From Myxococcota bacterium (GTDB lineage: Bacteria > Myxococcota_A > UBA9042): 64,000 nt of DNA. The position numbers and the translations under genes are program-made. A model generated the notes under the pieces. That model saw only the letters and a list, made by a program, of their open reading frames with translations, had not been told where the DNA came from and ran no database searches. The stretch lies in assembly GCA_964201005.1 (NCBI GenBank), contig CAXNCS010000003.1, forward strand, positions 71,180 through 135,179. The letters run 5' to 3'. How positions within the stretch are numbered: position 1 is the first letter of the stretch; each line of letters begins with the position of its first letter. Shown here one piece after another: positions 9,705-52,544 of this stretch.

Positions 9705-9769
9705 CCTAAGATCCTCGGCCGCATGGGGAACCAAAGTCCCGCAGCCTATTCGCGTCGAGCGCAGCTAAC

Positions 9770-13138: not shown

Positions 13139-13281
13139 CGTCGTCCTCCAATTAGGGCAGCGCTGGGCGATCCAGCGGTCCGGAGATTCCGCGCGGCATT
13201 GCGCAGAGGTCGACCGGACAGGGGCTATGTCATCGCACTGCACAGGCGCGCAGGGCACGGGACCGCGACCGGCCCCTTGGC

Positions 13282-15459
13282 TCAGTCCAGCGCGGGCGTC
13301 GGGTACTTCTTGGTGATGAAGTGCCCAGGCGTCCCAGGAACCTTGAGCGCGGCTTCGATGTCGGCTTGCGGCCAGGAGACCCGTGCCACGTACCACATGT
13401 CGCCCTTGCTCAAGTTGGACGAAGTCACCTCGTACTGCAGCGTGCCGTAAATGTACACGCGCACGGTGGCTACGGAGACGCCTAGACCAAAGTCGTTGTA
13501 ATAATGCACGCCCACCGCATAGGTGCGGCCTTCTTCCGGCAGGGTGAGGTTCAGGTTTTCCGGGCCGGCGCCGTCGGTATCGTCGCGATCGAGGCTCGGA
13601 TCGTCGTCCATGTTGGGGTCGTAGCTGCCCCACTCCACCGTGTTGCCGTTGCCGCAGTTGAACCAGAAGCAGTCGTACTGGCCGGCGAACCACGGATCGG
13701 GCTTGCCGTCGCCGTCATAGTCCTGGCCCGCGGCAAACTGGTGGGCAAAGTGCAGGTCCAGGTCCGTGCCGACGCCCGGGCCCGTATCGCTCTCGTCCTT
13801 GTCGCCCGGGGTCTTCCAAAGCAATTCCACGTGGATCGCTTGGTCCGGGATCACCTTGACCACCTTGGTGGCCGGGGCGCACGACTTCTTGCCGCTGGCG
13901 TCATACACATGCAGGCGGAAGGTGTACTCGCCGGCGATGTTGGGCTGGAAGGTCACGGCGCCGGCCTTGTTGTTGGGGGTAAACAGCGCCACGGAGCCCT
14001 TGGCCTGGTCGACTTCCCACTCATACTGGCCAATCGTCGAGCCGGTGGCGTAGCTCTGCTTGCCGTCCAAATGCAGCACGGTTTGCGGCGTCACCGTGTC
14101 ACCTTCGGCGATGGTGATGATCGGCGTCGGGCAATCGGCAGAAGCGCCGTAGCCTTCCAGCTTGACCGTGGTGCCGCCGCTCGCGGTGTTGGCGTTGAGC
14201 ACGAGATCGGCGCTGTCGAGCGTCACGCTGCCGTTGGGCTTGGTGGGCGACAGTTTGTCGGGCTGGTACGTCAACTCCAGGGTCGCCACGCCGTTGACGG
14301 GCAGCTTGAGCGGCGCCTGATCGGTCGGAGCCTTGCCGCCGGTCTGGGTCAGCGACTCCCACTTGACGGCAAAGTTGCCAGAAGCCGTGGTCGGATCGGT
14401 GCCGATCTCGATCTTCTTGATCTCCAGGGCCTCATCGCCACAGCTCTTGATCTGCAGCGCCTGCACCTTGGTCTGCCCCAGCTGGGTCGGGCCAAACACC
14501 ACCGTCTTGGGCGATACCAGCAGGCACGGTCCGGTCGAATTGACCTTGACCGGCACGCGCTTGATACCCACGCCGTTGGCCACAAGGCTGGGATCATTGG
14601 TAGAAAGCAGCATCTCCACAGAGCGCGGCTTGTCATCCTTGGCGCTGTAGAGCAGAGAGAAGGGCACCACATCGCCGGCCTTGAGCGAAAGCGGCGGGTT
14701 CTGCGCCAGCATGCCGCCGGTGGGATACTCCTTGCCCTGCAGCACCAGCTTGAACAGGTCCTTGTCCAGCGAGCTGAGATCAATAGAAGAAATCAGCAGT
14801 TCACCATTGCCCACGTTGAGCAAGGAGCCATCGACGACGGGATTGGAACCCACGCTGACAAAGCCAAAGTCCATGACCTCAGGCTGCACCGAGATCTTGG
14901 CTTGGCCGGCGGCGGTCTGGAACTTCTGCTTCCAAATCTCGTTCTTCTTCAGGTCGTTGCTGTAGACCACCAAGGTGGCGGTGCGGTTGGCCTGGTCTGC
15001 GGGGCGCTTGAACGACACCAGCACCGTAACCGCGGTGATGTCGCCCTTGCCGGCCGGAGAAATCGCAGGAAACTTGGCCTGATCGCAAGGCACTTCCTGG
15101 CCGCCGATGATCGCCGCACAGCCAAACGCCGGGCTCTCCTCGCCGGGCGCGCCTTGGTACTCCAGGGCCACCTTGCTGACCACCAGGTCGCCCACCGAGC
15201 CGGAATTGCTGACCACCAAAGCTTTTTCGAGCTTTGCCCCCACGGCCATGCCGCCGGCGTTGATCGCGATCGTGCCGCTGTTGTTCAGCACCTTGCCGGA
15301 GTCTTTGACGGCGATGGTCTGGTTGCTCTCCAGCGTGAAACCACCGCCCCCTGTGCCCCCGGTGCCGCCAGTTCCTGTGCCATTGTCCGTGGATGAGCAG
15401 GCGGCCCAGGTCAACGCCAGTGCGGCGATTAGCAGGGGGCTGCGGGTCGAGCGAATCAT
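13282..15459 (-). CDS. Ig-repeat lipoprotein, paralog 1 of the family with the conserved 'DLDLH / DDTDG.GPEN / VGVHYW' C-terminal domain
   Basis: ORF 13282-15537, with the start moved to ATG 15459 (GGAGGA upstream; MIRSTRSPLLIAALALTWAA/CSS lipobox, then a Gly/Thr linker). It has Ig-like repeats (VMDFGFVSVGSNPVVDGSLLNVGNGELLI; VVFGPTQLGQTKVQALQIKSCGDEALEI) and a PKD-like segment (GQYEWEVDQAKGS..PNIAGEYTFRLHVYD). The C-terminal domain reads IHVELLWKTPGD..GTDLDLHFAH..DGDGKPDPWF..DDPSLDRDDTDGAGPENLN..YAVGVHYYND..VRVYIYG..GDMWYVARVSWP. Confidence 0.85.
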   Translation of the reverse strand: MIRSTRSPLLIAALALTWAACSSTDNGTGTGGTGGTGGGGFTLESNQTIAVKDSGKVLNNSGTIAINAGGMAVGAKLEKALVVSNSGSVGDLVVSKVALEYQGAPGEESPAFGCAAIIGGQEVPCDQAKFPAISPAGKGDITAVTVLVSFKRPADQANRTATLVVYSNDLKKNEIWKQKFQTAAGQAKISVQPEVMDFGFVSVGSNPVVDGSLLNVGNGELLISSIDLSSLDKDLFKLVLQGKEYPTGGMLAQNPPLSLKAGDVVPFSLLYSAKDDKPRSVEMLLSTNDPSLVANGVGIKRVPVKVNSTGPCLLVSPKTVVFGPTQLGQTKVQALQIKSCGDEALEIKKIEIGTDPTTASGNFAVKWESLTQTGGKAPTDQAPLKLPVNGVATLELTYQPDKLSPTKPNGSVTLDSADLVLNANTASGGTTVKLEGYGASADCPTPIITIAEGDTVTPQTVLHLDGKQSYATGSTIGQYEWEVDQAKGSVALFTPNNKAGAVTFQPNIAGEYTFRLHVYDASGKKSCAPATKVVKVIPDQAIHVELLWKTPGDKDESDTGPGVGTDLDLHFAHQFAAGQDYDGDGKPDPWFAGQYDCFWFNCGNGNTVEWGSYDPNMDDDPSLDRDDTDGAGPENLNLTLPEEGRTYAVGVHYYNDFGLGVSVATVRVYIYGTLQYEVTSSNLSKGDMWYVARVSWPQADIEAALKVPGTPGHFITKKYPTPALD

Positions 15460-15737: not shown

Positions 15738-15998
15738 TTACTTGAGCAGGCGCTCTTTGGCCGTCTCAATCATCGCCGGGCGAAACGACTTCTTGAGCTT
15801 GAGCAGCTTGTCAAACTTGGCGCGCTGCCGCGATTCCATGTGCAGGGCCGCCGGCTTCTTGACGTCGCCGTCGATCAACTGGTCGCTAAAGTCGTAGAAC
15901 TTGGCCTTTTCTTCGGCCGCGGCGGGGCTGCTGTAGCCCACCGTCAAACCAGACAGGGCCAGGCTTGCCAGGGCCACTACAGCGAGGACTTTCTTCAT
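15738..15998 (-). CDS. Small (86 aa) secreted protein of unknown function
   Basis: This is the in-frame tail of ORF 15738-16349. ATG 15998 gives MKKVLAVVALASLALSGLTVGYSSPAAA/EEKAKFYDFSDQLIDGDVKKPAALHMESRQRAKFDKLLKLKKSFRPAMIETAKERLLK. It has a clean signal peptide, GGAG upstream and good GC3 bias. It sits directly after the TPR gene block. Confidence 0.6.
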   Translation of the reverse strand: MKKVLAVVALASLALSGLTVGYSSPAAAEEKAKFYDFSDQLIDGDVKKPAALHMESRQRAKFDKLLKLKKSFRPAMIETAKERLLK

Positions 15999-16107
15999 GG
16001 TGGGACTCCGCGGTCTGCAGAGGGGCCTCATTGCCCCCCAGGCTCTGTTGAAACTACAAGCTTCGCTGTGGCGGCGCAAGCACAAAAGTGCACTGCCGTT
16101 GGACGGT

Positions 16108-18165
16108 CTACTTGGGCGTCGGCTGCGGATCCTTGGCCTGGCCTTCCAGGGTCTTGGCCGCCTCGATTTCCTGAATGCGCGAAACGATCGCCACGAGCGC
16201 CTTCCACTTGCCGTCGGCTTCGTCGCTCTTCTTGATGAGCTCGTTCTTCTTTGCTGCCCAGTCCGGCGTCGCCTTCTTGGGTGCGCCGCTCGCCTTGATG
16301 AGCACCAGCGTCGCCGGCCAATCGGCTCCGGGCTTCTTGAGCGCAACATGGGCCTTCAGTTGCTCGCGCAGGGCATCGCGCTCGGCCTTGAGCTTGTCGG
16401 CCTTGCCCTGAGCCTCGGCGGGATCGGTGTCCATGGCCTCGCGCAGGTACTGCTTCCACAGGGCCACGGCCTTGTCAGAATTGTTAAAGTACTTGTAGTT
16501 CATGATCGCCAGACGCACCAAGATGGCGTAGCGCTTGGGATCCTTGGCCAGCACCTTGTCGTAGTATTCCGCGGCCTTCTGTGGATTGCGCAGGCCTTCC
16601 ATGGTCAGGGCATAGCCGGTGATCGCCTCCAAGTTGCCCGGCTCCAGGGCCAGCGCCTCTTTGTAGACCTTGTCGGCATCGCGGTAGTTCAAATATTCTA
16701 GGTAGATGGCGCCCAGATTGAGTCGCGCCGACACGGAACCGGCGTTGAGCTGCACCGCGTTCTTGAGCGCCACCACCGCGCGCGGCAGGTCGCCCAGCAG
16801 CACGTAGGTCATGCCCAGGTTACCCCACGCTTCCGGGTTGGCGGGGTCGATGGCGAGCACCTTCTCCTCCAAAATCCACCGGGCGATATCGTAGCGGCCC
16901 TGCTTGAGGTTGATCAGACCGCGGACATTCAGCGCAATCGTGTCTTCGCGGTTGACGCGCAAAGCCTTTTGCAGAAACTGCTCGGCGAGCTTGAAGTCGT
17001 CCGCAGCCAGCCAATAGACGGCGAGCGCCACGTTGTTCATGGCGTTGTCCGGGTCTTGGCCCAGGATCGAGTCGCAGATGCCCTTGGCTTGATCGCGCAA
17101 ACCTTTGGCTTTGTCCGCTTCGCCGGCTTCCGCCAGACGGTTGGCCTGGGCGAGCATGGAGCGGGCGATGTACGCCTGGGCCGACAGCTGCAGGCCGCGC
17201 TCGCGATCGTCCTTGGGCTCAATCAGCTTGGCGGCTTCGTACGACTTGCGCGCTTCGTCGTATTTGCCCAGGCGCTCATAAGCCATGCCAGCGTTGAAGT
17301 AGGCTTCATAGAAGCGCTTATCCAGGTCCGCGGCGCGCTGAAACTCGACCGCAGCGCTCTGGTAGTCCGGGCCGCACTTGCTGCAACGACCGTCCGCGGC
17401 CTTACACGCGCTGGGGCAACCGTACGCCGTGCACTTGCCGCTGCCCAGGTCGATGTACTCGCCCACTTTGCACGGGCCAGCGCCTTCGCTGCTGTTGGAG
17501 GTGAGTTCCTGCTCCGTGCATTCGCGGGTAGCGAGCTCGCAGCCTTCAGAGCCGGGCTTGCACCGCACAAACTTAAAGCTCGGCGCGCCAGCCACTGCAC
17601 CGGCGTCGGCGGCGGGCGGGGCTTCGACCTTCTTCATCCAGTCGCCACACCACTTGTTGCGCCCGGCCGCGTCCATGACTTTCTTGTCGCAAGCCTTGGT
17701 GTCCAGCTCGCACGCCAGATCGCGCGTGCCGTCCTTCCACGGTTCGCACGGCACCTCAACGTCCTTCTCGACTTCCTCTTCCTTGCCCTCGTCGTTCTTG
17801 ACCTTTTCCTTCTTCTTCTCCGTGCGCACGTACTTGGCGCAGCGGTCCAGCACGCAGGAATCGGGGCTCTCAATCGCCACCGAGGCGCAGGTATTGGGGC
17901 CGACGCGCGCGCAGCTCTTGCCCAGCGAGACAAAGCCCGCGGCGCAGCACTGGCCGTCATCCAATATCTGATAAGGATTGCACTTAGGCACCTTGCGCAG
18001 CGCCGACTGCAGGCCAGAGCGCATCGCATCCTGGGCCTTGTCGTCGATGCCGGGCAGGTATTCTTGGGCGTAGGCGCTCGCGGTCGCCACCGTGGTGAGC
18101 ATCAGCCCCAGCAGGGCCGACGCCAGCTTGGGACCGCTTGCGAACTTCTTGAAAGTCGTGGTCAT
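16108..18165 (-). CDS. Secreted protein with an N-terminal Cys-rich region and multiple TPR repeats
   Basis: ORF 16108-18186, with the start moved to ATG 18165 (AGGAGA upstream; MTTTFKKFASGPKLASALLGLMLTTVATASAYA/QE is a signal peptide). More than 20 Cys occur in the first ~260 aa. TPR units follow (YFNAGMAYERLGKYDEARKSYEAAKLIEP; WGNLGMTYVLLGDLPRAVVALKNAVQLN; EAITGYALTMEGLRNPQKAAEYYDKVLAKDP), then a charged C-terminal tail. Confidence 0.85.
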   Translation of the reverse strand: MTTTFKKFASGPKLASALLGLMLTTVATASAYAQEYLPGIDDKAQDAMRSGLQSALRKVPKCNPYQILDDGQCCAAGFVSLGKSCARVGPNTCASVAIESPDSCVLDRCAKYVRTEKKKEKVKNDEGKEEEVEKDVEVPCEPWKDGTRDLACELDTKACDKKVMDAAGRNKWCGDWMKKVEAPPAADAGAVAGAPSFKFVRCKPGSEGCELATRECTEQELTSNSSEGAGPCKVGEYIDLGSGKCTAYGCPSACKAADGRCSKCGPDYQSAAVEFQRAADLDKRFYEAYFNAGMAYERLGKYDEARKSYEAAKLIEPKDDRERGLQLSAQAYIARSMLAQANRLAEAGEADKAKGLRDQAKGICDSILGQDPDNAMNNVALAVYWLAADDFKLAEQFLQKALRVNREDTIALNVRGLINLKQGRYDIARWILEEKVLAIDPANPEAWGNLGMTYVLLGDLPRAVVALKNAVQLNAGSVSARLNLGAIYLEYLNYRDADKVYKEALALEPGNLEAITGYALTMEGLRNPQKAAEYYDKVLAKDPKRYAILVRLAIMNYKYFNNSDKAVALWKQYLREAMDTDPAEAQGKADKLKAERDALREQLKAHVALKKPGADWPATLVLIKASGAPKKATPDWAAKKNELIKKSDEADGKWKALVAIVSRIQEIEAAKTLEGQAKDPQPTPK

Positions 18166-18189
18166 GGCTGGGATTCTCCTGTGCAAGGG

Positions 18190-21100
18190 CTACTTGGCGT
18201 CGGCCTTGGGCTTGTAGGAAACGGTAAACTTGCCGCGGCGCACGCTGGTGACGAACGCTGCAGAAGTGGCCGGGTCCGAAGACTCGTTGGCCGACACAGT
18301 CGCGGCTGCCTTGGGCAGGTTGGGGTCTTTTTCCACCGTCGGGTACGCGTCCGGATTGACCTTGTACGCGTAATCGCCAGCTTCTTTGGACCACTTGTTG
18401 TACACGCCCAAGTTGTGGGCGATGTTGATGGCGCTCTTGAGCGCGGTGACGGACTGCTCTTCGATCGGCGTCGCCAGCTTCTCGATTTCCAGCTTGTAGG
18501 CGTCTTCCAGCTCGGCGTTGCCGACGATCTGCGGCGGAACCGGAGCGTTGAACAGGTCTTCCTTGAACTTGAAGTACAGCAAACCGATGCGGAAGGCCGC
18601 CGCTGCCGCGTACGCCTTACCGCCGCCGGCAGAGGCCTTTTCAACCACGTCAAAGTAGCGACCTTCGGCCTTCTTGAGCGCCTCGGCCTTCTTTTGCAGC
18701 ATCGGCAGCAGGCCCTTCATGTTCTTGACGCTCTTGAGGGTCAGGACGTCGAAGTCGTCAAAGTCGTACTCGGTGCGATAGAACAGCGCTTGCGCCACAT
18801 AGAACGTCGCCTTGCCGCCCTTGCCGTCGGGCTTCTCATAAGCCTTGGCTGCGGAGTCGGCGGCGGAAATGGCGTCCTTGCGGTTCTTGCCGGCGTCGGC
18901 CAAGCGCAGTTGCTCGGTCTTGCGGCCCAGTGCCTCTACGTGCAGGTCCGGGCGGGCAGGGTACTTGCTGACCACCGCGGCGTAGGAGCCGGCGGCGAGC
19001 TTGGCGCCTTCCACGCCCATTTTCTCGTAGACGTGGCCCTTCTCCATCTCGGCATCGGCGACCAGGCCCTTGAGGCGCTTGGTATTCTCGTCGTCGCCCT
19101 TGAGCGCGTTGGCCACGCCGATGAACTTGTCATACGCCGCCGCCGCACCGCGGTAGTCCTGGAGCGCCGCGAGGATCTGGCCGGCGTTGATCAGCGCCTG
19201 GGCTGCATCGGCGTTGTCGCGGAACTTGGCCATGTCCAAGAAGGCGTCGGCCGCTTCGCGGAAGCTGGTCATCGCCTCATAGAGCATACCGACCTGGAAC
19301 TTGGCCTCGGGGGCGATCTTGGACTTGGGGAACTCCTTGACCACGCGCTCAAACGTGTCGATGGCGACCTTGTCGTCCTTCTGGTCGATGTAGAGCATGG
19401 CCTTGTTGTACAGAGCAATCGCCGCCAACTCCGGCTCTTCGCTCTTGAATTCGCGCAGAATGGTGTCGTACTTGGCATGTGCGCCTTCGTAGTCCTTCTT
19501 CTCCGCCAGCTGGATGGCCTGTTCGGCGACCGAAACTGCAATGTACTTCCGCAGATCCTTGGTCTCGAGCACGATGCGGCTCTTGCGCTTGAGCATCAGC
19601 CGCGCCCACTCTTCGATCTTGACCCAGTCCTTCTGGCGCGCGTAGATGTCGATCAAGCTGCGCACAGCGATCTCAGCGACTTTGTTGTCTTCCTGGTACT
19701 TGTAGACGCGCTCGTAGCCGCTGATGGCCTCACTGTACTGGCCGCGGTCATAGAAGGCCGAGGCGGCGAGGTACATGATCTCCGGGACCATCTTGCCCTT
19801 GCCGCACTGCTTCTTCTTGCCGCCGGTGCAGTCAACTTTGGCCTTCTCCATCAACTCGACGTACTTGTCGGCCGCCTTGACGTACGACACTTCGAGCGGG
19901 TGCAATTCCTGGCGCTTCTTGGGTACCTGGGCGGCCTTGATCTGCTCTTCCGTCAGGTCGGCCTTCTTGTCTTTCTTGACGACGGTGACCTTGACGCCGC
20001 CGCCTTCCACCGTGTCGACCAGCGGCGAGCAGTCAGCCCGCTCTTCCCAGGCCTGCTTCTTGTCGTTGTAGCACGCCTTGGTGTTGCGCATCAGGTTTTC
20101 CGTAGCGTAAATCACGCCCAACGCGGCGTCTTCGACGTACTCGCCACTCGGGTCCAGCTCGATGACGCGCTCGTAGGCGACGCGAGCTCGGTTGAAGTCC
20201 TTGAGCTGGTCGTACAACAATTCCGCATAGTAGAAGTTGACGATGTACGCCTTCTTGCTGTCCGGATAGCGGCGGATGAACTCTTTGTAGTCGTCCGCAG
20301 CCTTGTTGTAGTAGGGCAGCGACTTGGCCGAGTCCTTGGTCTCGTCGTCGGTCTTCTGGGCCAACTGGTGGTAGTAGTTGGAGATGTACAGCAGGTAGTT
20401 CTCGCCGTTGCGCTGGGCCTTGTCGCGGGCCTCTTCAGACTTGGCGTCCTTGCGCTGCTTCATGGCCGACAGCCACGGCGAGGTGCGGTCATCCGTGAAC
20501 GCCAAGAACTTGCGCATCGCCGCTTCGATGTCCGGGAACGCTCCGAGCTTCTTGTAGATGTCGACAATCTGCTCGTGCCACTCGACGCAGCGCGGATCGG
20601 TCGGCTTGCTCTCGATAAAGTGCGTGTGCAGGTCAACCGCGTCTTTGTCTTTGTCGATCGACACGTAGATTTCGCCCAACTTGTACATGCGTTCCCAGGC
20701 CTTGGCCTCGCCTTCGACCGAGATGAAGTACTCCTTGGCCTTGGGCCAGGCGCCGTCGAGCTCGGCATAGGCCTGCACAAGGTCTTTGAGCGCCTGATCG
20801 CGGAACTCGATCTTGCCCTTGTCGCCTTCCTTGCTGATTTCCTTGACCACCGCCTGGAAGGTCTCGATCGTCCGCTGGAATTCGCGCAAGTTGTAGTACA
20901 CCCAACCGAGCTTGTAGAGCGCGTAGTTGTACATCGCCGCATTCTTGAAATTCTGCGTGATCTTCTCGTAGTTCATCTTGGCGAGGGTCAGGTTGTTCGC
21001 CTCAAAGAAGTGCTCGGCCAGCGCCAAGTGGGCTTGCGGGATGAGCGGGCTCGTCTGGAACTTCTGAATCAGCTGATTGAGGTACTGCACGCCCTTTTGC

Positions 21101-21759
21101 GACAGCACTTTGTCGCCCAGCGCCTTGCCCTGCTGCATGCACGCCTTGCCCACGCGGTACAGAATCTCTGAGAGGCGCGGGTAGTTGGGGTACTGCTGCA
21201 ACACCTTCTCGTAATACGAGATCGACTGCTGATAATTCTCCACTGGCTGTACCGGCTTCTCTTTGAGGATGCCTTTCTCAAACTGCTCCATCTTGCGGTC
21301 GTAGTCCGAGCGCTCGAGCAGATAGAGGAACTTGGTCTCTTCCCACCACGCCTCCGCCATGCGGAAGTAGTAGTCGGGGGCGTTGGGATCGCGCGGATTG
21401 CGCGCCAGCAGATCTTCCAGCGTCTTGATCGTCCGCACGCGAATCTTGGACTTTTCCTGCTGCAGCGCCCGCTCTTTGGGGGTAAAGCCCAGCTGGTCGA
21501 GCCGATCGGCGGTGAAGGAGCCTTTCTGCAGGGCATCCTCATCGCGCTTGGGCTTGGCCACTTCGACTTTCTTCTCTTCCTCCACCAGCGAGGTCTTCTT
21601 TTCGACCTTCTTGGTGGCGGCGCCGGCCTCGACGTCTTCTTCCTGGGCCCAAGCGGCCGCGCCACCGGCGACGACGCCCAAAGTGGTGACGAGGGCTACC
21701 AAGCGTCGCCACGGGCGCGAGGCTCCCGAGACGCTGCGCTGCAAGCTGGATTCACGCAT
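18190..21759 (-). CDS. 1189-aa secreted all-TPR protein (size and position of GltD/AgmU-NfsD-type proteins)
   Basis: Signal peptide MRESSLQRSVSGASRPWRRLVALVTTLGVVAGGAAAWA/QEE, then a charged K/E linker, then TPR-like helical repeats throughout (e.g. YALYKLGWVYYNLREFQRTIETFQAVV; YYAELLYDQLKDFNRARVAYERVIELDP; LYNKAMLYIDQKDDKVAIDTFERVVKEFP). Its stop lies 24 nt before the next gene's start. Confidence 0.85.
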   Translation of the reverse strand: MRESSLQRSVSGASRPWRRLVALVTTLGVVAGGAAAWAQEEDVEAGAATKKVEKKTSLVEEEKKVEVAKPKRDEDALQKGSFTADRLDQLGFTPKERALQQEKSKIRVRTIKTLEDLLARNPRDPNAPDYYFRMAEAWWEETKFLYLLERSDYDRKMEQFEKGILKEKPVQPVENYQQSISYYEKVLQQYPNYPRLSEILYRVGKACMQQGKALGDKVLSQKGVQYLNQLIQKFQTSPLIPQAHLALAEHFFEANNLTLAKMNYEKITQNFKNAAMYNYALYKLGWVYYNLREFQRTIETFQAVVKEISKEGDKGKIEFRDQALKDLVQAYAELDGAWPKAKEYFISVEGEAKAWERMYKLGEIYVSIDKDKDAVDLHTHFIESKPTDPRCVEWHEQIVDIYKKLGAFPDIEAAMRKFLAFTDDRTSPWLSAMKQRKDAKSEEARDKAQRNGENYLLYISNYYHQLAQKTDDETKDSAKSLPYYNKAADDYKEFIRRYPDSKKAYIVNFYYAELLYDQLKDFNRARVAYERVIELDPSGEYVEDAALGVIYATENLMRNTKACYNDKKQAWEERADCSPLVDTVEGGGVKVTVVKKDKKADLTEEQIKAAQVPKKRQELHPLEVSYVKAADKYVELMEKAKVDCTGGKKKQCGKGKMVPEIMYLAASAFYDRGQYSEAISGYERVYKYQEDNKVAEIAVRSLIDIYARQKDWVKIEEWARLMLKRKSRIVLETKDLRKYIAVSVAEQAIQLAEKKDYEGAHAKYDTILREFKSEEPELAAIALYNKAMLYIDQKDDKVAIDTFERVVKEFPKSKIAPEAKFQVGMLYEAMTSFREAADAFLDMAKFRDNADAAQALINAGQILAALQDYRGAAAAYDKFIGVANALKGDDENTKRLKGLVADAEMEKGHVYEKMGVEGAKLAAGSYAAVVSKYPARPDLHVEALGRKTEQLRLADAGKNRKDAISAADSAAKAYEKPDGKGGKATFYVAQALFYRTEYDFDDFDVLTLKSVKNMKGLLPMLQKKAEALKKAEGRYFDVVEKASAGGGKAYAAAAAFRIGLLYFKFKEDLFNAPVPPQIVGNAELEDAYKLEIEKLATPIEEQSVTALKSAINIAHNLGVYNKWSKEAGDYAYKVNPDAYPTVEKDPNLPKAAATVSANESSDPATSAAFVTSVRRGKFTVSYKPKADAK

Positions 21760-21857
21760 AGCGATACCTTTGCTGGGGGGAATGGGAGCGGCGCTCTGGC
21801 TGCGGGCGGCTCAGCGCTGGCCCACTTTGGCGGCGATCCCCATGCGGGGTCACGAAC

Positions 21858-23783
21858 TCAGTTGCCGACCGCGGGGGCCGAACTGGTCTTGCACTTGGAC
21901 TTGAGGAACGAGCGGTAGGCGCCGATCTCGTCTTTCCAGAATTCACCTTCAAACGGCCACTGCATGGCGTCCGAGCCGGCGATCGCCACCGGGCCTTCCT
22001 TGGCCACCGCCTCGCCTTCAGCCGCCGACTTGCCGGCCTGCTCGTCTTCGATCGCCTGCAGGCGGATTTCGTCGAGGTCGAGGCGCAGCTGGGCGAGCTT
22101 ATCCTGATAGGTATCCAGGTCTTTGGCCGCCTGACGCAAGGTCTGCTGGATGACCACACCGGCCTCAGAAATGCGCTCCGTCTTGCGCTGGCCGAGCTTG
22201 GCGAGCATCTCCTGACCAAAGGCGCCGAGCTGCTGCAGGTTGGCCTTGACCACCCGCTCCTCTTTCTCGATCTGCTTGATCGTGTTGTAAAGGTTGTAGA
22301 ATTCGACATTCATCAGCACGGGCGACTGCAGCTGCCGCGGCAATCCGCCGCCCTGCTTGGGCTTGTTCACCGTGGCCAAGAAGGCGTTGTAGAACTCTTC
22401 CGGCTTGCGCGAGCGCTTGAGGAAGTCGCGCAGCGGCGGGGCGAGGACGATCACCCGCTCCTCAAACATCTTCATGGCCTCTTCCGCCTCCGCCGACAGG
22501 CACAGGTTGACGTACGCCGTCGCCTCCAAGATCCACAGCTCCGGGTAGAAGTGGTGGGCAAAGTAGGGGCTGTGCAAGGCGTGAAAGGTACCCAGGGCCC
22601 GCGAGGTGTCGCCTTTGAGGAAGTAGGTCCAGCCGCTCTCATAGAACGCGGTCGCCAGCTTGGGCGAGTTCTTGCTGATCTTCTTGTAGTAGTAGATCGC
22701 CGCGTCGTACTGCTGAATATCGTACGCCAAACGCGCTAGAGCCAGATAGGCCAGATCGACCACCGGCCGGCCATCCGCTTGGGTCTCCGCGGCGAGCACG
22801 GCTTTCTGGAACGCCTCGGCGGCGGCCTTGACTTGGGCACCGGCGAGGCGATCTTCGGCGTTGTCCGGAATCTCCATCAGGCCAAGCAGATACTGGGCGC
22901 GACCATAGTCCAGGCCCTTGTCCGATACCTTCTCCAGGTAGGGGCGCGCGGCATCTTTGACGCCAAAGTCGTTGAGCGCTTCGCCTACAAAGTAGTAGAA
23001 GCCGTCTTGAAACCCCGCGTCAAAGGTATTGACCGACAGCTTGGTCAGTTCTTCAAGCTCCGGCGGGCGATAGATGATCTGCTTGCGCAGGTCGCGCAGC
23101 TGTTGGAACGCGGTGGTAAAGAACATCTTGTCTGAGCCGGCGCGCACCACGTCAAGCAGCGTATCCGCAGCCGACTGAATCAGCCCCGCGCGGGCCAAGG
23201 CGTTGGCGATGCCGTACTTGGCGACGTAGGCCTCGTTGCTGTCCGGAGCGAATGGGATGCCGCCAACGCCGTCTTCGACGAACTTGGTGAACACCTGCAC
23301 GGCTTTGACGAACTCGCCAGAGTTGGCGTAGTCCTGGCCCTGCTTGAGGATCTTGCCGGCAAAGGCCTTGCGCTGGCCCTCTTCGCGGCGCTTCTGCTCT
23401 TCCGCCAACCGCACCGACTCTTCGCGCAGCCGGGCCTCTTCGGCGGCCATCTCGGCGGCGGTCAGCACTTTTTCGGCGGGCTTGTCCACCGGCTTGTCCG
23501 CCGGCTTGGGCGCGGTGCCGGCGCCAGTCGACAGCATGAAGCGGATGAGCTTGTCCGTCGCGCCGCGGCGCTTGAGCTCCATGATCTCCTTGGGCGCCAG
23601 GGCAAACTTGCTGCCGTCCTTGGTGATCTTCTTGATGATCTGATCGTCGGTCGCTTCAGCTTCCAACAGGGCATACACCTGGTCCAGGCTGATGGCCCAA
23701 GCGGGAACGGCCTGACTCGCGGAGACGAGCAGGGCAGCGGCCATGGCCCAAGAGCCCAAGCGGCGGCGGTGGTGAAGGTGCAT
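21858..23783 (-). CDS. 641-aa secreted TPR / coiled-coil protein
   Basis: GGAGGAACC precedes ATG 23783. Signal peptide MHLHHRRRLGSWAMAAALLVSASQAVPAWA/IS. A small N-terminal helical module is followed by a P/A/K linker, TPR-like repeats (RAQYLLGLMEIPDN.., YLALARLAYDIQQYDAAIYYYKKI) and a C-terminal coiled coil (LDTYQDKLAQLRLDLDEIRLQAIEDEQ). Confidence 0.8.
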   Translation of the reverse strand: MHLHHRRRLGSWAMAAALLVSASQAVPAWAISLDQVYALLEAEATDDQIIKKITKDGSKFALAPKEIMELKRRGATDKLIRFMLSTGAGTAPKPADKPVDKPAEKVLTAAEMAAEEARLREESVRLAEEQKRREEGQRKAFAGKILKQGQDYANSGEFVKAVQVFTKFVEDGVGGIPFAPDSNEAYVAKYGIANALARAGLIQSAADTLLDVVRAGSDKMFFTTAFQQLRDLRKQIIYRPPELEELTKLSVNTFDAGFQDGFYYFVGEALNDFGVKDAARPYLEKVSDKGLDYGRAQYLLGLMEIPDNAEDRLAGAQVKAAAEAFQKAVLAAETQADGRPVVDLAYLALARLAYDIQQYDAAIYYYKKISKNSPKLATAFYESGWTYFLKGDTSRALGTFHALHSPYFAHHFYPELWILEATAYVNLCLSAEAEEAMKMFEERVIVLAPPLRDFLKRSRKPEEFYNAFLATVNKPKQGGGLPRQLQSPVLMNVEFYNLYNTIKQIEKEERVVKANLQQLGAFGQEMLAKLGQRKTERISEAGVVIQQTLRQAAKDLDTYQDKLAQLRLDLDEIRLQAIEDEQAGKSAAEGEAVAKEGPVAIAGSDAMQWPFEGEFWKDEIGAYRSFLKSKCKTSSAPAVGN

Positions 23784-23890
23784 GGTTCCTCCGCGGTGCG
23801 GTGCGGTGTGCGGGCTGGCGGTCTAGCGCGGACCCACTGAGTCAATTGCAGAAAAGCGGTGCTTCTACCCAAAGCCCCCGTACGTCCAGG

Positions 23891-24856
23891 CTATTCCGCC
23901 GGGGCGGTGAACCAGGTCAGCGAAACGGTGACAGAAACCGGCTTGGACAAACCGGCTGAGGCGTCGTTCTTCACGTCGTCAAAGGCCGGGTAGTAGAGCT
24001 GCTGGATGTTGGCGCGCAGGGCCCAGCGCTCGGCGATGTAGAACTGCAGGTAGGTGCCCACTGAGCCAGCGGCATCAAAGCGGTACGCTGGTTCGATTAC
24101 GCCTTTCTTGGTCACACGGGTGTAAACGCCGCCGATGCCAAAGCTCAGCGCTGCGTCAAACTCGTTGAGGCCCGTGCCAAAAAAGCTGAACTTACCGTGC
24201 ATCAAGTTCCAGTCGACGCCCGCCGTCGTGTAGGCCTGCAGCGTCTGCGGCAACCGCACGTTCAGCTCAAAGCCGTCGGGGCGCTTCGACTGCAGCTTGT
24301 CGCGCAAGGATGTCGGCTGATCGTAGGTGTAGGCACCCTGGACGTGCAGCGCAAGGTCTTCAGAGAAATAGTAATTGTAGCCCACGCCGCCGGTGATGTA
24401 GGTCCAGAAGTCGTCGTTGGGCACCACGCCGCCCAAGAAGGAGACGCTGTGGCGGCCTTCCTTGATGACCGCGCGCTTCTGGATCACTTTGATGTCGCGG
24501 CGCTTGGCCCACTCCATCCGCGCTCCAGGGGGCACCGCGTCGTCGCCGACACCGTAGATGTCTTGGTCGCCGGTTTCGCCCATGAGGTCAGGGGCTTTGC
24601 CTTTGTCCCCGCCCTTGTCCGCTGCCGGCTTTGGCTCGGCTTTTGGCGTTTCAGCTGCGGGGTCCTTGGCGGCGTCGGCGACTGGCGCTTCGGCCGGGGC
24701 TGTTGGATCCGCTGGCTTTTCCGCCGGGGTCTCTTGGGCCAGGGCCGGTACGGCGGCCAGGGCAGTCGCGCCCAACCACGCCGCCAGGCTCAGGCGCCCA
24801 ACCAGTGCGGATCGCCAAGAGCGCCGGGACAGGGGAGAAAGGAAGAAACTGCGCAT
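23891..24856 (-). CDS. Outer-membrane beta-barrel-type protein (321 aa) with a Pro/Ala/Lys-rich N-terminal linker; paralog of 25026-25769
   Basis: ORF 23891-24958, with the start moved to ATG 24856 (MRSFFLSPLSRRSWRSALVGRLSLAAWLGATALAAVPALA/QE). After the linker, amphipathic beta-strand patterning is shared with the neighbouring gene: FLGGVVPNDDFWTYITGGVGYNYYFSEDLALHVQ, NLMHGKFSFFG..FDAALSFGIGGVY, GTYLQFYIAERWALRANIQQLYYP. Confidence 0.7.
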   Translation of the reverse strand: MRSFFLSPLSRRSWRSALVGRLSLAAWLGATALAAVPALAQETPAEKPADPTAPAEAPVADAAKDPAAETPKAEPKPAADKGGDKGKAPDLMGETGDQDIYGVGDDAVPPGARMEWAKRRDIKVIQKRAVIKEGRHSVSFLGGVVPNDDFWTYITGGVGYNYYFSEDLALHVQGAYTYDQPTSLRDKLQSKRPDGFELNVRLPQTLQAYTTAGVDWNLMHGKFSFFGTGLNEFDAALSFGIGGVYTRVTKKGVIEPAYRFDAAGSVGTYLQFYIAERWALRANIQQLYYPAFDDVKNDASAGLSKPVSVTVSLTWFTAPAE

Positions 24857-25025
24857 TTCGAACCTCAGCAGCCGCGGCGGGCCGCCCTCTTGGCAGGGAC
24901 CTTGGGGAGCTGCGGCCGACCTCTGCAGGTGAGTCGCGGCGCTTTGGGGTCCCGTCAACCGCTCGTCTCGCGCCGGTAGGGCGGCTTGCGGCGGCGCATG
25001 GTGAAGTCGCCCGGAGGGCGGATTT

Positions 25026-25769
25026 CTACTTGCTCAAGTAGGCAAGACCGAGGGTGAACTCGGCCGGAGCCAGGAACGAGATATTGTCCTGCGGCTTGTA
25101 CAGGTACTGGCTGTATCCGAGCTGGACGTTGAGAAACCGCGACAGATAGAAGCGGAAGCCAATGCCCCAGTGCCCGCCGACCTTGATGGCATTGACGGGC
25201 TCCTTGTTGCCGCGCGACTCGTCAACGTCGACGTTGATCACGCCCACGCCGCCCGAGAAGTTCACGTCAAAGCTGGTCAGCTTCTTGTCAAAGATGCCCC
25301 ACTTGCCGTGAAAGGGCGTGTAGACCAGGTCCAGCGCGCTCGTCCAGTTCATCTTGGGCGCGGCCTGGGCGCCCCGGGTCAGGACGTTGCAGCTGCCGCC
25401 GCTCGCTGGCACGCACTTGAGGAAGGTGAGGATGTTGGAATCCTCGGCCATGAGGTACTGGAAGCCGCCCTGCAAGGCCAGGGTGTCCGCCAGGTAGTAC
25501 GCCACCCGACCGCCCGCCGTGTAGAACAGGTAAAAGTTGTCGTTGGGGATGGTGCCGAGCTGCACCGAGCCTTCAAAGCCGCCCTTGCGCTCGTAGAGCG
25601 GGTTGGTCAGCGACGGCACGGCCTGGTCGACGTTCCAATACTTGCCCAGCTCGCGATCGATCGGCTCGGCAGATTCTGCCGCCATGGCGGAACTCGCCAG
25701 CGCCCAGGCAGAAACCGTGATCAGGGCTGTCGCGATGGTGCGGCGCAGCGCCCGGTGCATCCAATTCAT
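25026..25769 (-). CDS. Outer-membrane beta-barrel-type protein (247 aa); paralog of 23891-24856
   Basis: GGGAGGAACAGAGG precedes ATG 25769. Signal peptide MNWMHRALRRTIATALITVSAWALASSAMA/AE. Alternating beta-strand patterning: VQLGTIPNDNFYLFYTAGGRVAYYLADTLALQG, YTPFHGKWGIFDKKLTSFDVNFSGGVGVINV, HWGIGFRFYLSRFLNVQLGYSQYLYKP, EFTLGLAYL. Confidence 0.7.
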   Translation of the reverse strand: MNWMHRALRRTIATALITVSAWALASSAMAAESAEPIDRELGKYWNVDQAVPSLTNPLYERKGGFEGSVQLGTIPNDNFYLFYTAGGRVAYYLADTLALQGGFQYLMAEDSNILTFLKCVPASGGSCNVLTRGAQAAPKMNWTSALDLVYTPFHGKWGIFDKKLTSFDVNFSGGVGVINVDVDESRGNKEPVNAIKVGGHWGIGFRFYLSRFLNVQLGYSQYLYKPQDNISFLAPAEFTLGLAYLSK

Positions 25770-25938
25770 CCTCTGTTCCTCCCGCGCGACTCCAGGGGTG
25801 GGGTCGCAGGTGCCGCCTCGCCGCGGCGATCTCTGGCGGTCTGTGGCGCCGGCAGCCCGTCGCTAGGCGGGGGCAGGGCATCGGCAATTCACTTCAGCGG
25901 TTCAGACCTCTCGCTCTACCCAGTTCCGCTTGCCAAAA

Positions 25939-27930
25939 TCAGCCCTTGCAGACGCCGTCGCACTTGCCGTCGGCTTTGCACGTCCCGCCGCAGCACTTGC
26001 CCTTGCCGTCCGCGCCACAGGGCAGCAGATCCGGCGACGGGTCCGCCACGCACTCGCCCGCGGGGCTGCAGTGGTTGGCTCCGCAGGGATCGCTGCCGCC
26101 GCAGTCGGCGTCGCTGGCGCAGGACAAGTGGAAGATCATGCGGCGATCGCGTGAACCGTCCTGGGTGAACTGCCACTCTTTCTCGTTCTTGAACACTTCT
26201 TTGAGGCTGCTAAACACCGTGGACTGCATGGTCATTTTGCCGCGCATGGCGGTGACGGCGCCCTTCTTGACCGAATCGTCTTTGAAGCGATTGTCCATAA
26301 AGCCAACGCGCCAGTTGCCGGCCAGGGTGTAGCGCACCATGGCGATCGAGCGGCTCATGGCGTCTTGGAACGGGGTCGGGTCCTTGTTGTTCATGTCCAA
26401 GGTGTTGATGAACTGATAGGTGCCTTCCGTGCGGCAAGCGAGGTCCTGCAGAAACGCGTCCGGCTGCGGGTGGGTCTTGGACTGCACTTGGACGACGTGG
26501 AGGCGCACCGGGAACTTGTCGTCGTGCATGACCTGCAGCAACGCCTTGTAATCGGTGGTGATCATTGCGCACTGCTTGCGGCAGTCGCCGCCCTTGCCAA
26601 CCTTGGGATCGACAAATTGGTACAGGTCCGAATAGGTGCAGCTGTCCGGGCCGTCGGTCAGAAGAACGATGTGCCGAGGCGCGCCCGCTCCCAGGTCTTT
26701 GTCGCGCAGGAAGGTGTACGCCGTGTTCAGGGCCTCATACACCGGCGATCGCCCCGTGGCGGCCTCGCGGATGCGCTCTTCCAGACCCAGGCGGTTCTGC
26801 GCCTTGACCTTGTCGGAGCTGCCAAAGCACTTCACCATCTGCTCAGGCTGAGAAAGATTGGCAAAAGAGTCATTGGCAAAGGACGGATCGGCGGCGCACT
26901 GATAGTTGCCCTTGTTGCCGTCCGGGTCGACCAGATCTTTGCAGTCCGCGTTGCTGATGCAGGACTTGGTCGTGACCTCGTTGACGGTGCCGTCGGTGTA
27001 CTGGCAGCGCAGGTCGTCGGTGCACGCCACGCGCACGCCGTCGTTGCTCTCGTCGTAGTACATCGTCAGCACGCGATCGCGGGGATTGAGCGTATCGATG
27101 AGCTGTTGGGCGCCAGCGACGAGCACGCTGTAGCGGTCCGACGAGCACTCCGGGAATGAATCGGGCGTCCACTTGCCGGGCATATCCTCAATGAACTTGC
27201 TGGCCGTGGTGCAGTCGCCGGTGTCGGTGTAGACAAAGCCGTCTGTCGATCCGCTGTGGTCCACGAGGATCGCGACGTTCTGGAAAGTTTCCTTGCGATC
27301 GGGGTCGCACCGATCCGGGGCAACCGCCTTGTATTTAAGGGCCTTGCCCGTACCGCCGGAGCCTTCAGCCGAAGTGCTGCACGTCGCCGGATCTTGGATC
27401 CCAGCGCGCGGCTCATAGCAGCCCAAGTCGAGCTCAAAGTTCGCGGGCGAGATCGTCTGAAGCGCCGGATCGGTGGTGACCGGCTGCTGCTCGATGCGAT
27501 CGCCATCGCGAATGCCCAGATCGACGTCGCCCTCGCACTTGGGGCTCGTGACCTTGAGCTCGGTCGACACGAGGTTGACCGTCAGCTCGACGCCGTTCGC
27601 TTCCAGTACCGGTTCTCCGTCAGCCAGTGGCGCGCCGCAAACCCGGGTCACCGTCTTCGTCTGGGCGTTGACGAACGCCGGAAAGGCCGAGACGACTTGG
27701 ACTTTGTCGAAGATCAAGTTGTCCAGGCCAAAACGCGCGGTCGAGTCGCAGCTCGACAGGCCGCCGGTGATCAACCAAGCGGTGCCAAGGAGCGCGCTCG
27801 CGATCGTCGCCGGGACCCCAAGGCGTCCGCGCGGCTGTCGCGGTGCGGAATCTTGGCCTTGATCTGGGCGGCGCTTAGGGAATTGGGCCTGCGCGTTGGA
27901 ATCGACCTGCGGCTGGGACTGGATGGGCAT
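25939..27930 (-). CDS. 663-aa lipoprotein with a vWA domain and a Cys-rich C-terminal module
   Basis: GAGAGG lies upstream of ATG 27930. Lipobox LITGGLSS/CDS after a charged N-region. The vWA MIDAS-type motif is NVAILVDHSGSTDG, with later RHIVLLTDGPDSC. About 40 Cys overall. The C-terminus reads CASDADCGGSDPCGANHCSPAGECVADPSPDLLPCGADGKGKCCGGTCKADGKCDGVCKG. Confidence 0.85.
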   Translation of the reverse strand: MPIQSQPQVDSNAQAQFPKRRPDQGQDSAPRQPRGRLGVPATIASALLGTAWLITGGLSSCDSTARFGLDNLIFDKVQVVSAFPAFVNAQTKTVTRVCGAPLADGEPVLEANGVELTVNLVSTELKVTSPKCEGDVDLGIRDGDRIEQQPVTTDPALQTISPANFELDLGCYEPRAGIQDPATCSTSAEGSGGTGKALKYKAVAPDRCDPDRKETFQNVAILVDHSGSTDGFVYTDTGDCTTASKFIEDMPGKWTPDSFPECSSDRYSVLVAGAQQLIDTLNPRDRVLTMYYDESNDGVRVACTDDLRCQYTDGTVNEVTTKSCISNADCKDLVDPDGNKGNYQCAADPSFANDSFANLSQPEQMVKCFGSSDKVKAQNRLGLEERIREAATGRSPVYEALNTAYTFLRDKDLGAGAPRHIVLLTDGPDSCTYSDLYQFVDPKVGKGGDCRKQCAMITTDYKALLQVMHDDKFPVRLHVVQVQSKTHPQPDAFLQDLACRTEGTYQFINTLDMNNKDPTPFQDAMSRSIAMVRYTLAGNWRVGFMDNRFKDDSVKKGAVTAMRGKMTMQSTVFSSLKEVFKNEKEWQFTQDGSRDRRMIFHLSCASDADCGGSDPCGANHCSPAGECVADPSPDLLPCGADGKGKCCGGTCKADGKCDGVCKG

Positions 27931-33342: not shown

Positions 33343-33351
33343 GATCAGCAC

Positions 33352-45416: not shown

Positions 45417-45418
45417 CC

Positions 45419-50160: not shown

Positions 50161-50163
50161 CCC

Positions 50164-51432: not shown

Positions 51433-51456
51433 ACGCTTATGCAATTGGAGGATACG

Positions 51457-52541: not shown

Positions 52542-52544
52542 AGA

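Follow-up and report, generated by a model that had tools for sequence, protein, structure and literature searches.

A conserved Glt/Nfs-type operon of outer-membrane and periplasmic genes headed by a vWA lipoprotein gene in an uncultured freshwater myxobacterium

An uncultured freshwater myxobacterium carries the outer-membrane and periplasmic half of a Glt/Nfs machine of the Myxococcus type, in a conserved layout that was previously undescribed. In the window, which is the whole 64-kb stretch of DNA that was analysed, seven co-directional genes occupy the minus strand from 27930 to 15738, with gaps of 169, 169, 107, 98, 24 and 109 nt between them and third-position GC values of 0.79-0.88. 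The initial annotation had described seven minus-strand genes with short gaps; all of its ORFs were recovered, and the gaps indeed range from 24 to 169 nt. The module order, with a lipoprotein gene at the head followed by two barrel genes and then C, D, E and F, recurs in at least 83 loci of three deep clades, namely freshwater MAGs (clade I), a second MAG clade (clade II) and the Bradymonadales (clade III). The block singled out by the initial annotation is thus syntenic across relatives, and an arrangement found in 83 related loci is far from chance. In the scan of the genome collection, the best 80 of 410 GltD-like loci were examined, and none of these 80 came from Myxococcus. Among the matches listed for the GltD-, GltC- and head-like proteins in homology searches, all were from uncultured relatives.

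The comparison with Glt proteins was made through the curated NCBIfam Glt models and through a classical A-B-C-D-E-F-G-H cluster in another Myxococcota genome (GCA_023150875.1, locus L087), which was reached by a distant GltD match. The block is colinear gene for gene with this cluster, in which F is followed by GltG (380 bits) and CglE/GltH (NF033755, 91.8 bits, above the cut-off of 70). Two outer-membrane beta-barrel proteins follow the head lipoprotein: barrel 1 of 247 aa (25026..25769, minus strand), which is of the GltA/GltB type, and barrel 2 of 321 aa (23891..24856, minus strand). Both exceeded the TIGR04565 cut-off of 60 bits (71.9 and 69.5 bits, respectively), and barrel 1 was also matched by Pfam OMP_b-brl. 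Because the barrels match each other with 27% identity (E=2e-12), they are paralogues, and their initial assignment as a paralogous pair of the GltA/B type is upheld. Barrel 2 has a long Pro/Ala/Lys-rich linker at its N-terminus. A tblastn comparison of the barrel region of the window with the L087 barrel pair gave an E of about 1e-5, with matches that fall within barrel 2; barrel 1 is tied to the L087 barrels because it is a paralogue of barrel 2 and because the L087 pair also belongs to the TIGR04565 family.

The next protein (641 aa; 21858..23783, minus strand) is a GltC/NfsC-like periplasmic TPR protein. It matched NF033756 (gliding_GltC) with E=6.4e-52 and 177 bits, compared to 29 bits for the next-best model; since the equivalog cut-off is 450 bits, we claim homology and not orthology to M. 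xanthus GltC. Its identity with the GltC of L087 was 25% (E=5e-37). The GltD/NfsD-like periplasmic TPR scaffold (1189 aa; 18190..21759, minus strand) has a signal peptide and repeats of the TPR_6/YbgF type. No model named after GltD appeared in the NCBIfam outputs, and the similarity of this protein to GltD/NfsD, on which the initial reading had depended, was checked through the L087 D protein and found to extend across 1122 aa (25.6% identity, E=3e-59). The D protein of Bradymonas sediminis, encoded in a cluster with GltJ, matched with 27% identity (E=1e-124), and the N-terminal third is the best conserved part of the family. The GltE-like TPR protein (685 aa; 16108..18165, minus strand) is recognised by its conserved position and its match to L087 GltE (E=1e-18); its match to NF033758 (E=9e-18) is unspecific, because generic TPR models score as high or higher. 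It contains 21 Cys, and its N-terminus is extended by about 250 Cys-rich residues that are specific to the clade. The last protein, a GltF/CglF-like secreted protein of 86 aa (15738..15998, minus strand), was matched solely by NF033764 (gliding_CglF; E=5.5e-11, 42 bits against a cut-off of 90), and a gltF-like gene stands after E in nearly all loci compared. Because all matches to the Glt models lay below the NCBIfam equivalog cut-offs, the proteins are distant relatives of the M. xanthus proteins, not their orthologues. The NCBIfam matches and the colinearity with L087 nevertheless agree with the scaffold of Glt/Nfs type in Nfs-like order that had been proposed initially. Annotation pipelines call the whole system just "TPR" or "hypothetical".

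The gene at the head of the block (25939..27930, minus strand) encodes a MIDAS/vWA outer-membrane lipoprotein of 663 aa. Its lipobox is GGLSSC, with C61 as the lipidation Cys, and its MIDAS site (DHSGS...TDG, i.e. D224-x-S226-x-S228 ... D426) is intact; across 34 homologues, the residues of both motifs vary little or not at all. The protein is built of a beta-sandwich, a vWA domain and a Cys-rich tail, and has 29 Cys (4.4%). A search by Foldseek with its AlphaFold2 model (pLDDT 82, pTM 0.85) matched vWA domains, e.g. those of RrgA, integrin I-domain and TRAP. The call of a vWA/MIDAS lipoprotein in the initial annotation is therefore sound. The family is small, comprising just 234 representative clusters among 1.84 billion proteins, and the three clades have head proteins that are homologous to one another (hhalign probability 98-100%). 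The MIDAS motif is retained in 46 of the 53 head proteins of clades I and II, and the head gene adjoins the barrel genes in 56 of the 57 loci with room for it. None of the NCBIfam models matched the head protein, even at E<=10, and no model named after CglB was among the outputs of the scan. The M. xanthus adhesin CglB, which is loaded by GltA/B/H/K/C, is a lipoprotein of 416 aa that combines a beta-rich domain with a MIDAS vWA domain; its N-terminal beta-strand is predicted to insert between GltA and GltB. Both proteins are thus Cys-rich MIDAS/vWA lipoproteins with a beta-rich domain and nearly the same Cys content (4.4% vs 4.1%), but the head protein is longer and has no sequence match to annotated models. 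We regard it as CglB-like in architecture and as an analogue only, for homology to CglB could not be shown by sequence. We also considered the head protein as a fusion of GltK and CglB, for which the search of the NCBIfam models gave no support.

Further surface-type lipoproteins are encoded on both sides of the module, making seven lipoprotein genes when the head is included. Downstream of gltF and on the same strand are ds1 (13282..15459, minus), a 725-aa lipoprotein with a chain of Ig-like domains (choice-of-anchor D/ASH/PKD matches) and an acidic C-terminal domain; ds2 (9770..13138, minus), a lipoprotein of 1122 aa with three choice-of-anchor D domains that ends in a MIDAS vWA domain (DNSGS); and ds3 (7710..9734, minus), a lipoprotein of about 665 aa with weak Ig-like signals (DUF1573/choice-of-anchor D). 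The initial annotation had stated that Ig-repeat lipoproteins occupy the slots of GltG and GltH, and this holds, the genes after F encoding lipoproteins of the choice-of-anchor D/ASH/PKD type. In addition to these three downstream genes, three paralogues of ds1 lie divergently upstream (28387-35574, plus strand): up1 (28387..30789, plus), up2 (30982..33342, plus; 786 aa) and up3 (33352..35574, plus; 740 aa), all of them lipoproteins. Protein ds2 scored 133.7 bits against NF012200, and matched NF052240, the model of the Bdellovibrio MIDAS adhesins, with E=5e-14. Its match to the CglD model NF033765 covers model positions 640-875 only, i.e. the vWA region (E=2e-10, 39 bits against a cut-off of 400); a full-length CglD match with the COMP-like Ca-binding repeats was not seen for ds2, the N-terminal half of which is Ig-like of the choice-of-anchor D type.

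These genes remain linked to the module in clades I and II, at differing positions. An orthologue of ds1 follows gltF in 21 of the 22 clade I loci and stands upstream of the head gene in 17 of the 30 clade II loci; ds3 follows ds2 in clade I loci, and up1 is kept upstream of the head gene in 13 of 16 clade I loci. Taken together, the module has Ig-type and CglD-like MIDAS lipoprotein genes beside it in 21 of the 22 loci of clade I and in about half of those of clade II, and none was found at the Bradymonadales loci. The dedicated set of vWA and beta-sandwich surface proteins suggested by the initial annotation is therefore strongly linked in clade I, partly in clade II (17/30) and absent in the Bradymonadales. 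When flanking ORFs were clustered for extra conserved components, only housekeeping synteny within sub-clades and an alternative acidic-repeat lipoprotein appeared.

The energising parts of the known machines were searched for as well. No MotA/TolQ/ExbB, ExbD/TolR or GltG/J gene was found in the 64-kb window by HMMs run over six frames, with the positive controls passing, which agrees with the initial statement that the window has no AglRQS/TolQR-type motor gene. The motor HMMs (MotA/ExbB and ExbD) were built from E. coli proteins alone and recovered the positive control L089 with E=5e-15 and 4e-6; apart from L089, neither the window nor any of the 88 further loci gave a motor gene. A tblastn search with E. 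coli TolQ/TolR had missed this control and was for that reason discarded in favour of the HMMs. The linker HMM, made from the AgmX/PglI tail, recovered its controls, all clade III loci and L052, and found no GltG/J tail in the window or at any clade I locus. Within 10 kb, neither GltG/J nor motor genes were found at the clade I loci or at 41 of the 42 clade II loci, the exception being L052, where a gene with a GltG/J tail follows gltF at a distance of about 1 kb. With respect to the remaining Glt components, no window protein matched GltH/CglE (NF033755), no small ORF inside the block was left over for a GltK/CglC small lipoprotein, and GltK or GltH/CglE genes were not found within 10 kb at clade I loci or, except for L052, at clade II loci. 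A 218-aa gene upstream of the Bradymonadales head gene was dropped as a GltK candidate, because its product has no signal peptide.

The initial annotation had argued from the lack of a motor gene that the block is a distinct variant. This argument is weak, because M. xanthus, Anaeromyxobacter and Bradymonas likewise have an unlinked motor, and its absence from the window says little. In 10 of 10 Bradymonadales loci, a GltJ-like gene (E=5.5e-46) stands directly after gltF, and this, together with L052, indicates that the family still uses such a linker. Because relatives keep GltJ-like genes beside gltF, the motor and the TonB-like linker are most likely encoded in trans, and a motor-less system is not demonstrated by these data. 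The ancestral "core complex" has been described as a Group B operon, gltC-D-E-G with aglRQS (Luciano 2011); a single operon of scaffold and motor was absent in the window and was seen in L089.

On balance, we think it probable that the block is the outer-membrane and periplasmic module of a trans-envelope machine of the Agl-Glt/Nfs type, in a lineage-specific layout, with the motor and linker elsewhere and adhesion as the output. In such a machine, two paired barrels of the GltA/B type would sit in the outer membrane, the GltC-like protein would dock beneath them, and the 1189-aa GltD-like protein would form a periplasmic pillar to which the GltE-like and GltF-like proteins are attached. The barrels may hold and expose the head lipoprotein, in the role of the adhesin CglB, and the neighbouring Ig-chain proteins and the CglD-like MIDAS protein would be further surface adhesins that work with this platform. 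A TolQR-like motor and a TonB-like linker of the GltG/J kind, with genes at other sites of the genome, would supply force or energy. We infer that the output is regulated surface adhesion, most likely for gliding or for attaching to particles or prey. Against a motility reading we counted that the organisms concerned are lake plankton that has not been cultured. Moreover, two paralogous M. xanthus clusters, G4 and G5, play no part in motility, and thus homology does not fix the function.

The block could instead be a Glt paralogue without a motility role that handles other surface material, like Nfs with its spore-coat polysaccharide or like G4/G5, while the true gliding genes, if any, are elsewhere. 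Its genes run A-B-C-D-E-F as they do in nfsA-F, Myxococcota often possess several Glt-like clusters that differ in function (G3-G5 in M. xanthus and four in Haliangium), and there were 410 GltD-like loci in the genome collection, the best 80 of which were examined. We nevertheless consider this unlikely. The Nfs and G4/G5 clusters each carry a GltG homologue and have no adhesin genes, polysaccharide-export or sporulation genes were not found near the block, and the partners conserved beside it are lipoproteins of the MIDAS and Ig adhesin type, comparable to CglB and CglD of the gliding system. A reading in which the cluster serves envelope maintenance, as a generic set of TPR proteins and an outer-membrane protein of the Tol-Pal/YbgF or BamD kind that is unrelated to Glt, could draw on the 1189-aa protein, which is above the YbgF cut-off over several repeats (125.8 bits), and on BamD-type TPR matches. 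These reflect TPR similarity at the level of repeats only, whereas the GltC and CglF matches are specific and the genes are colinear one by one with a cluster bearing GltG and CglE; this reading is effectively refuted and has hardly any probability left.

The lack of GltG/J and motor genes in the window, and in the 10 kb around every clade I locus and 41 of the 42 clade II loci, would also fit a scaffold that in these two clades is uncoupled from GltG/J and from an AglRQS-type motor, and that only inserts, exposes or retains vWA and Ig-chain lipoproteins for static adhesion. Seven lipoprotein genes surround the module, their linkage is conserved despite the differing positions in clades I and II, and a role of the ancestral core in protein secretion was raised as a speculation in the CglB preprint. 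Against this, none of the proteins known to connect the TonB-like GltG/J with the outer membrane (GltD, E, F and C) has been lost, and all of them are conserved, as is the N-terminal third of GltD in particular; GltJ-like genes are present in cis in the sister clade Bradymonadales and in L052, and an unlinked motor is the norm in Myxococcota. We hold such autonomous display to be improbable. Still more doubtful is the extended proposal that planktonic freshwater Myxococcota uncoupled the Glt scaffold from its TonB-like linkers and proton motor and repurposed it to load and display MIDAS and Ig lipoprotein adhesins; if true, a motility machine would have given rise to a novel type of system for adhesion and for exposing surface lipoproteins.

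In M. xanthus, cglB and cglD, gltKBAC, gltD-J and the motor genes are scattered, and decades of genetics were needed to connect them. Here, a single operon unites platform, scaffold and a dedicated vWA lipoprotein in at least 83 loci of three deep and mostly uncultured clades, often with adjoining candidate adhesin genes. This supports the adhesin lipoprotein as an integral and possibly ancestral part of the Glt outer-membrane module. It also delimits a compact module, lacking GltK and GltH, that would lend itself to heterologous reconstitution, and nominates new families of candidate cargo or adhesin proteins. Bradymonas sediminis offers a cultured entry point to the system.

Compared to the Agl-Glt machine of M. 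xanthus, which consists of G1 (gltD-J), G2 (gltKBAC), aglRQS and the adhesins CglB and CglD, the block has in common the paired barrels, a GltC-type protein, a GltD-type protein of about 1190 aa, a probable GltE counterpart and a small protein of the GltF type, as well as a Cys-rich MIDAS/vWA lipoprotein and a second, large MIDAS lipoprotein, ds2, the vWA region of which resembles that of CglD. The M. xanthus genes are spread over at least five loci, whereas those of the block are all in one operon, which lacks GltK, GltH, GltG, GltJ, GltI and a motor in cis. In addition, ds2 has Ig-like domains in place of the COMP-like Ca-binding repeats of CglD, and the GltE-like protein of the block has a Cys-rich extension, unlike that of M. 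xanthus. The order barrel, barrel, C, D, E, F is identical in the Nfs spore-coat machine (nfsA-H) and in L087; these go on with GltG, which has an FHA domain and a TonB-like tail, and with GltH/CglE, and have no head lipoprotein, whereas in the block adhesin-type lipoproteins take the place of G and H and a vWA lipoprotein gene comes first.

In Anaeromyxobacter, the merged cluster is gltK-B-A-C-D-E-F-G-H (Luciano et al. 2011, Table S3). As in the block, outer-membrane (G2) and periplasmic (G1) genes are fused co-directionally, the barrel genes come after a lipoprotein gene and no motor gene is linked to them. However, the gene in first position there encodes the small lipoprotein GltK (139-172 aa) instead of a 663-aa vWA candidate adhesin, and G, H, I and J are found downstream, which is not the case in the block. 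The Bradymonadales (Bradymonas sediminis and Lujinxingia; L005, L078-L085) are like the block in having a homologous head (hhalign 98%), the barrels and C-F in an operon. They differ in that the MIDAS of their head protein is degenerate (ENSGG) and that a GltJ-like gene with a ZnR/TonB tail, lacking in the block, comes after gltF. Finally, Bd0875 and Bd1483 of Bdellovibrio (NF052240) share with ds2 a lipobox, a beta-rich domain and a MIDAS domain, but they are far smaller, and the role shown for them is in prey invasion, not in gliding. Judging by its locus tag, Bd1483 probably lies two genes from the glt/agl cluster Bd1474-1481.

All seven minus-strand ORFs of the initial annotation were found again with the same boundaries, and they had a third-position G+C of 0.79-0.88 in a window of ~63% G+C and intergenic gaps of 24-169 nt. 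The head gene (25939-27930, -) showed only a weak VWA_3 match in the family scan. Barrel 1 (25026-25769, -) and barrel 2 (23891-24856, -) matched TIGR04565, a Myxococcota-centred outer-membrane barrel domain, with 71.9 and 69.5 bits (cut-off 60) and are paralogous to each other (27% identity, E=2e-12). The GltC-like gene (21858-23783, -) matched NF033756 (E=6.4e-52, 177 bits; runner-up model 29 bits), the GltD-like gene (18190-21759, -) encodes many TPR_6/YbgF-type repeats, the GltE-like gene (16108-18165, -) matched the GltE model at E=9e-18, with other TPR models scoring similarly, and the sole match of the GltF-like gene (15738-15998, -) was CglF (=GltF; E=5.5e-11). Because all the Glt matches were below the NCBIfam equivalog cut-offs, the module proteins are distant homologues. 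A 1400-aa antisense ORF across gltD and gltE (16969-21171, +) was rejected as a high-G+C artefact and is not a gene.

The Glt assignment was anchored by outgroup loci. In L087, which carries the next more distant GltD match (P0096), a barrel-barrel-C-D-E-F-G-H cluster was found, with 283 bits for GltC, 136 for GltE, 64 for CglF, 380 for GltG and 91.8 for CglE/GltH (above cut-off). From the barrels to F its gene order is identical to that of the window, with E values of 3e-59 for D (25.6% identity over 1122 aa), 5e-37 for C, 1e-18 for E, 3e-6 for F and about 1e-5 for the barrels. D and the barrels were the proteins on whose similarity the initial annotation had made its proposal depend. In L088, a further outgroup, C-D-E-F-GltG precedes the gene for a giant GltI-like TPR protein, and L089, a 'core complex', has MotA/ExbB and two ExbD genes in cis. 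The proposed Glt/Nfs-like periplasmic and outer-membrane scaffold is thus borne out by the NF033756, TIGR04565 and CglF matches and by the colinearity with L087. Comparison with L087-L089 shows that the head lipoprotein is specific to clades I-III.

Apart from Bradymonas sediminis, the sources of GltD-like homologues were almost all uncultured Myxococcota. When one genome per species was scanned, 410 GltD-like loci emerged and the best 80 were retained; a tblastn map and counts defined three clades. Over the D gene, one locus, in a Myxococcota MAG from Lake Mendota, shares 100% identity with the window, and its closest relatives among the best 80 of 410 were other lake and groundwater MAGs. 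Clade I (31 loci, at least 54% identity to the window GltD) has the divergent lipoprotein genes up2 and up1, then head-barrel-barrel-C-D-E-F(-F2)-ds1-ds2-ds3; 21/22 loci have an Ig lipoprotein after F, and 21/22 have ds2. Clade II (42 loci, 34-40%) has ds2 and ds1 (divergent, 14-17/30), then head-barrel-barrel-C-D-E-F and unrelated genes. Clade III (Bradymonadales; 10 loci, 27-29%) has head-barrel-barrel-C-D-E-F followed by a GltJ-like gene (NF033761, E=5.5e-46). Where the locus had room, the head gene adjoined the barrels in 19/19, 32/33 and 5/5 loci of clades I, II and III, and the GltC, GltE and CglF matches were similar across the clades.

Some details varied among the loci. The barrel order appeared swapped between clade I and clades II/III by best-hit assignment (L003, L005 and others against window 23891-25769). 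F2, a second gltF-like gene of ~82 aa after gltF, occurs in L001 (16034-16282), L012, L014, L025, L028 and L042; the window has a single copy. The window GltE-like protein (21 Cys) carries a Cys-rich N-terminal extension of ~250 aa, and those of clades II/III (456-514 aa) and M. xanthus GltE (471 aa) are ~170-230 aa shorter, which is the size of the extension. In one clade II sub-branch, a ~790-aa lipoprotein gene upstream of the head gene (L039, 1125-3488; also L037, L041, L049, L050, L070 and L077) replaces the Ig-type lipoproteins; its acidic double-disulfide DDDGDG repeats (NF033662, 52 bits) recall the Ca-binding repeats of CglD.

A lipobox (GGLSSC, C61), 29 cysteines (4.4%) and the motif VDHSGS...TDG characterise the head protein; across 34 aligned homologues, C61, D224, S228 and D426 were invariant and S226 nearly so. 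Its AlphaFold2 model (pLDDT 82, pTM 0.85) consists of a disordered tether (1-69), a beta-sandwich (74-202), a Rossmann-type domain (~218-535), a C-terminal beta region and a Cys-rich tail. Foldseek matched it to vWA domains from adhesins and integrins, among them RrgA, TRAP and the integrin CR3 I-domain (TM 0.63 over the target). CglB is a lipoprotein that combines a beta-rich domain with a MIDAS vWA domain and contains 4.1% Cys (PMC9946355), and the head protein is of the same kind in architecture only: no NCBIfam model matched it even at E<=10. Run against 1.84 billion proteins, the head-family profile found only 234 representative clusters, so the family is small and lineage-restricted; its members are unnamed or 'hypothetical' in their sources. 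The three head families are homologous to one another (hhalign probability 100%, 98.2% and 99.4%). Of the head proteins, 20/23 in clade I and 26/30 in clade II keep the MIDAS DxSxS, which is degenerate (ENSGG) in Bradymonadales.

Every gene listed after gltF encodes a lipoprotein: ds1 (13282-15459, -), a chain of Ig-like choice-of-anchor D/ASH/PKD domains; ds2 (9770-13138, -; 1122 aa), with three choice-of-anchor D domains and a C-terminal MIDAS vWA (DNSGS) that matched at E=5e-14 to the Bdellovibrio MIDAS adhesin model and at E=2e-10 to the vWA part of CglD; and ds3 (7710-9734, -). Upstream lie three divergent ds1-paralogue lipoprotein genes, up1-up3 (28387-35574, +). Weak OS_HP2 (seleno)protein domain matches (NF041425) were seen inside ds2 and up3 (9770-13693; 33352-35574). 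The minus-strand run holding the Cys-rich lipoprotein genes ends with a gene (3196-5277, -) for a 693-aa protein of three tandem DsbA/thioredoxin modules (NF041057, Rcas_1661-family thioredoxin-like (seleno)lipoprotein, 256 bits), which could be a disulfide catalyst for these lipoproteins. Apart from these genes, the window carries housekeeping functions and a complete type II secretion cluster (44259-59932, +; gspC, D, E, F, H, I, J, K, PilM-like L and N), with gspG probably in the gap 51432-51765. One ORF (40166-42124, +) joins an MXAN_2561-family domain to an MXAN_2562-family outer-membrane beta-barrel, two separate families in NCBIfam, and a lipoprotein of Cys-rich CGxxGCG-type repeats (43013-~44050, -) had no match in the family scan.

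The best-supported reading is that the module is the outer-membrane and periplasmic part of a Glt-type machine whose adhesin cargo is encoded in cis. Searches by tblastn with E. coli TolQ/TolR were insensitive in a later control and were set aside. Motor HMMs built solely from E. coli TolQ+ExbB and TolR+ExbD detected the motor genes of the control L089 (E=5.5e-15 and 4e-6) and gave zero matches in the six-frame window translation or the other 88 related loci, in agreement with the earlier statement that the window lacks a motor gene. A linker HMM for the GltG/GltJ C-terminal tail (AgmX/PglI) was positive on the controls, on every Bradymonadales locus and on a single clade II locus, and matched nothing in the window or clade I; the CglE/GltH model, positive on the L087 protein, matched zero window proteins. 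With ds1-ds3 after gltF, the GltG/GltH slots are indeed filled by lipoproteins, as had been suggested. The clade II exception, L052, is the only locus of that clade with a GltG/J-type gene (16460-18256, +; ~1 kb downstream of gltF), which may be a relic of ancestral linkage.

These empty searches would also suit an autonomous display platform for static adhesion, which we consider unlikely. The energising parts (motor and linker) are most likely encoded in trans: none of GltC, D, E and F has been lost, a GltJ-like gene comes after gltF in the sister clade (Bradymonadales) and in L052, and the motor is usually unlinked in Myxococcota. Paralogues do exist in M. xanthus, namely nfsA-H and G4 and G5 of unknown role (PMC3169522), and a non-motility paralogue with another, Nfs-like task seems to us about as improbable as the platform in view of the adhesin-type lipoproteins beside the module. 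We favor, with moderate confidence, adhesion or gliding powered by a motor in trans. The stronger suggestion, that this variant is distinct and hard-wired to surface proteins of its own, is right about the conserved linkage and unproven about independence from a motor.

In M. xanthus, the Glt genes are dispersed over the G1, G2 and M1 clusters (Luciano et al. 2011, PMC3169522); in the model for this species, CglB is held by GltA/B/H/K with GltC, and GltD is a pillar bound by the TonB-like tails of GltG and GltJ (PMC11761067). According to the same paper, Anaeromyxobacter has a merged K-B-A-C-D-E-F-G-H cluster, and Haliangium and Bdellovibrio have several variant clusters. In the searched portion of its Table S3, an unlinked motor is common and every gltF cluster includes a gltG homologue, the one exception being the Bdellovibrio Bd3598-3601 fragment. 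We found no published account of a vWA lipoprotein gene at the head of a Glt operon, or of such an operon linked to Ig/CglD-like lipoproteins. The MIDAS lipoprotein adhesin Bd1483 (PMC11003981) is two locus tags from the glt/agl cluster Bd1474-1481 listed in PMC3169522, a proximity unmentioned in the searched text of the Bd1483 paper; this position suggests that adhesins are linked to Glt clusters more generally. Both the components of Glt systems and their modular evolution are already known, and the vWA-headed layout and the head-protein family are previously undescribed and widespread in uncultured lineages.
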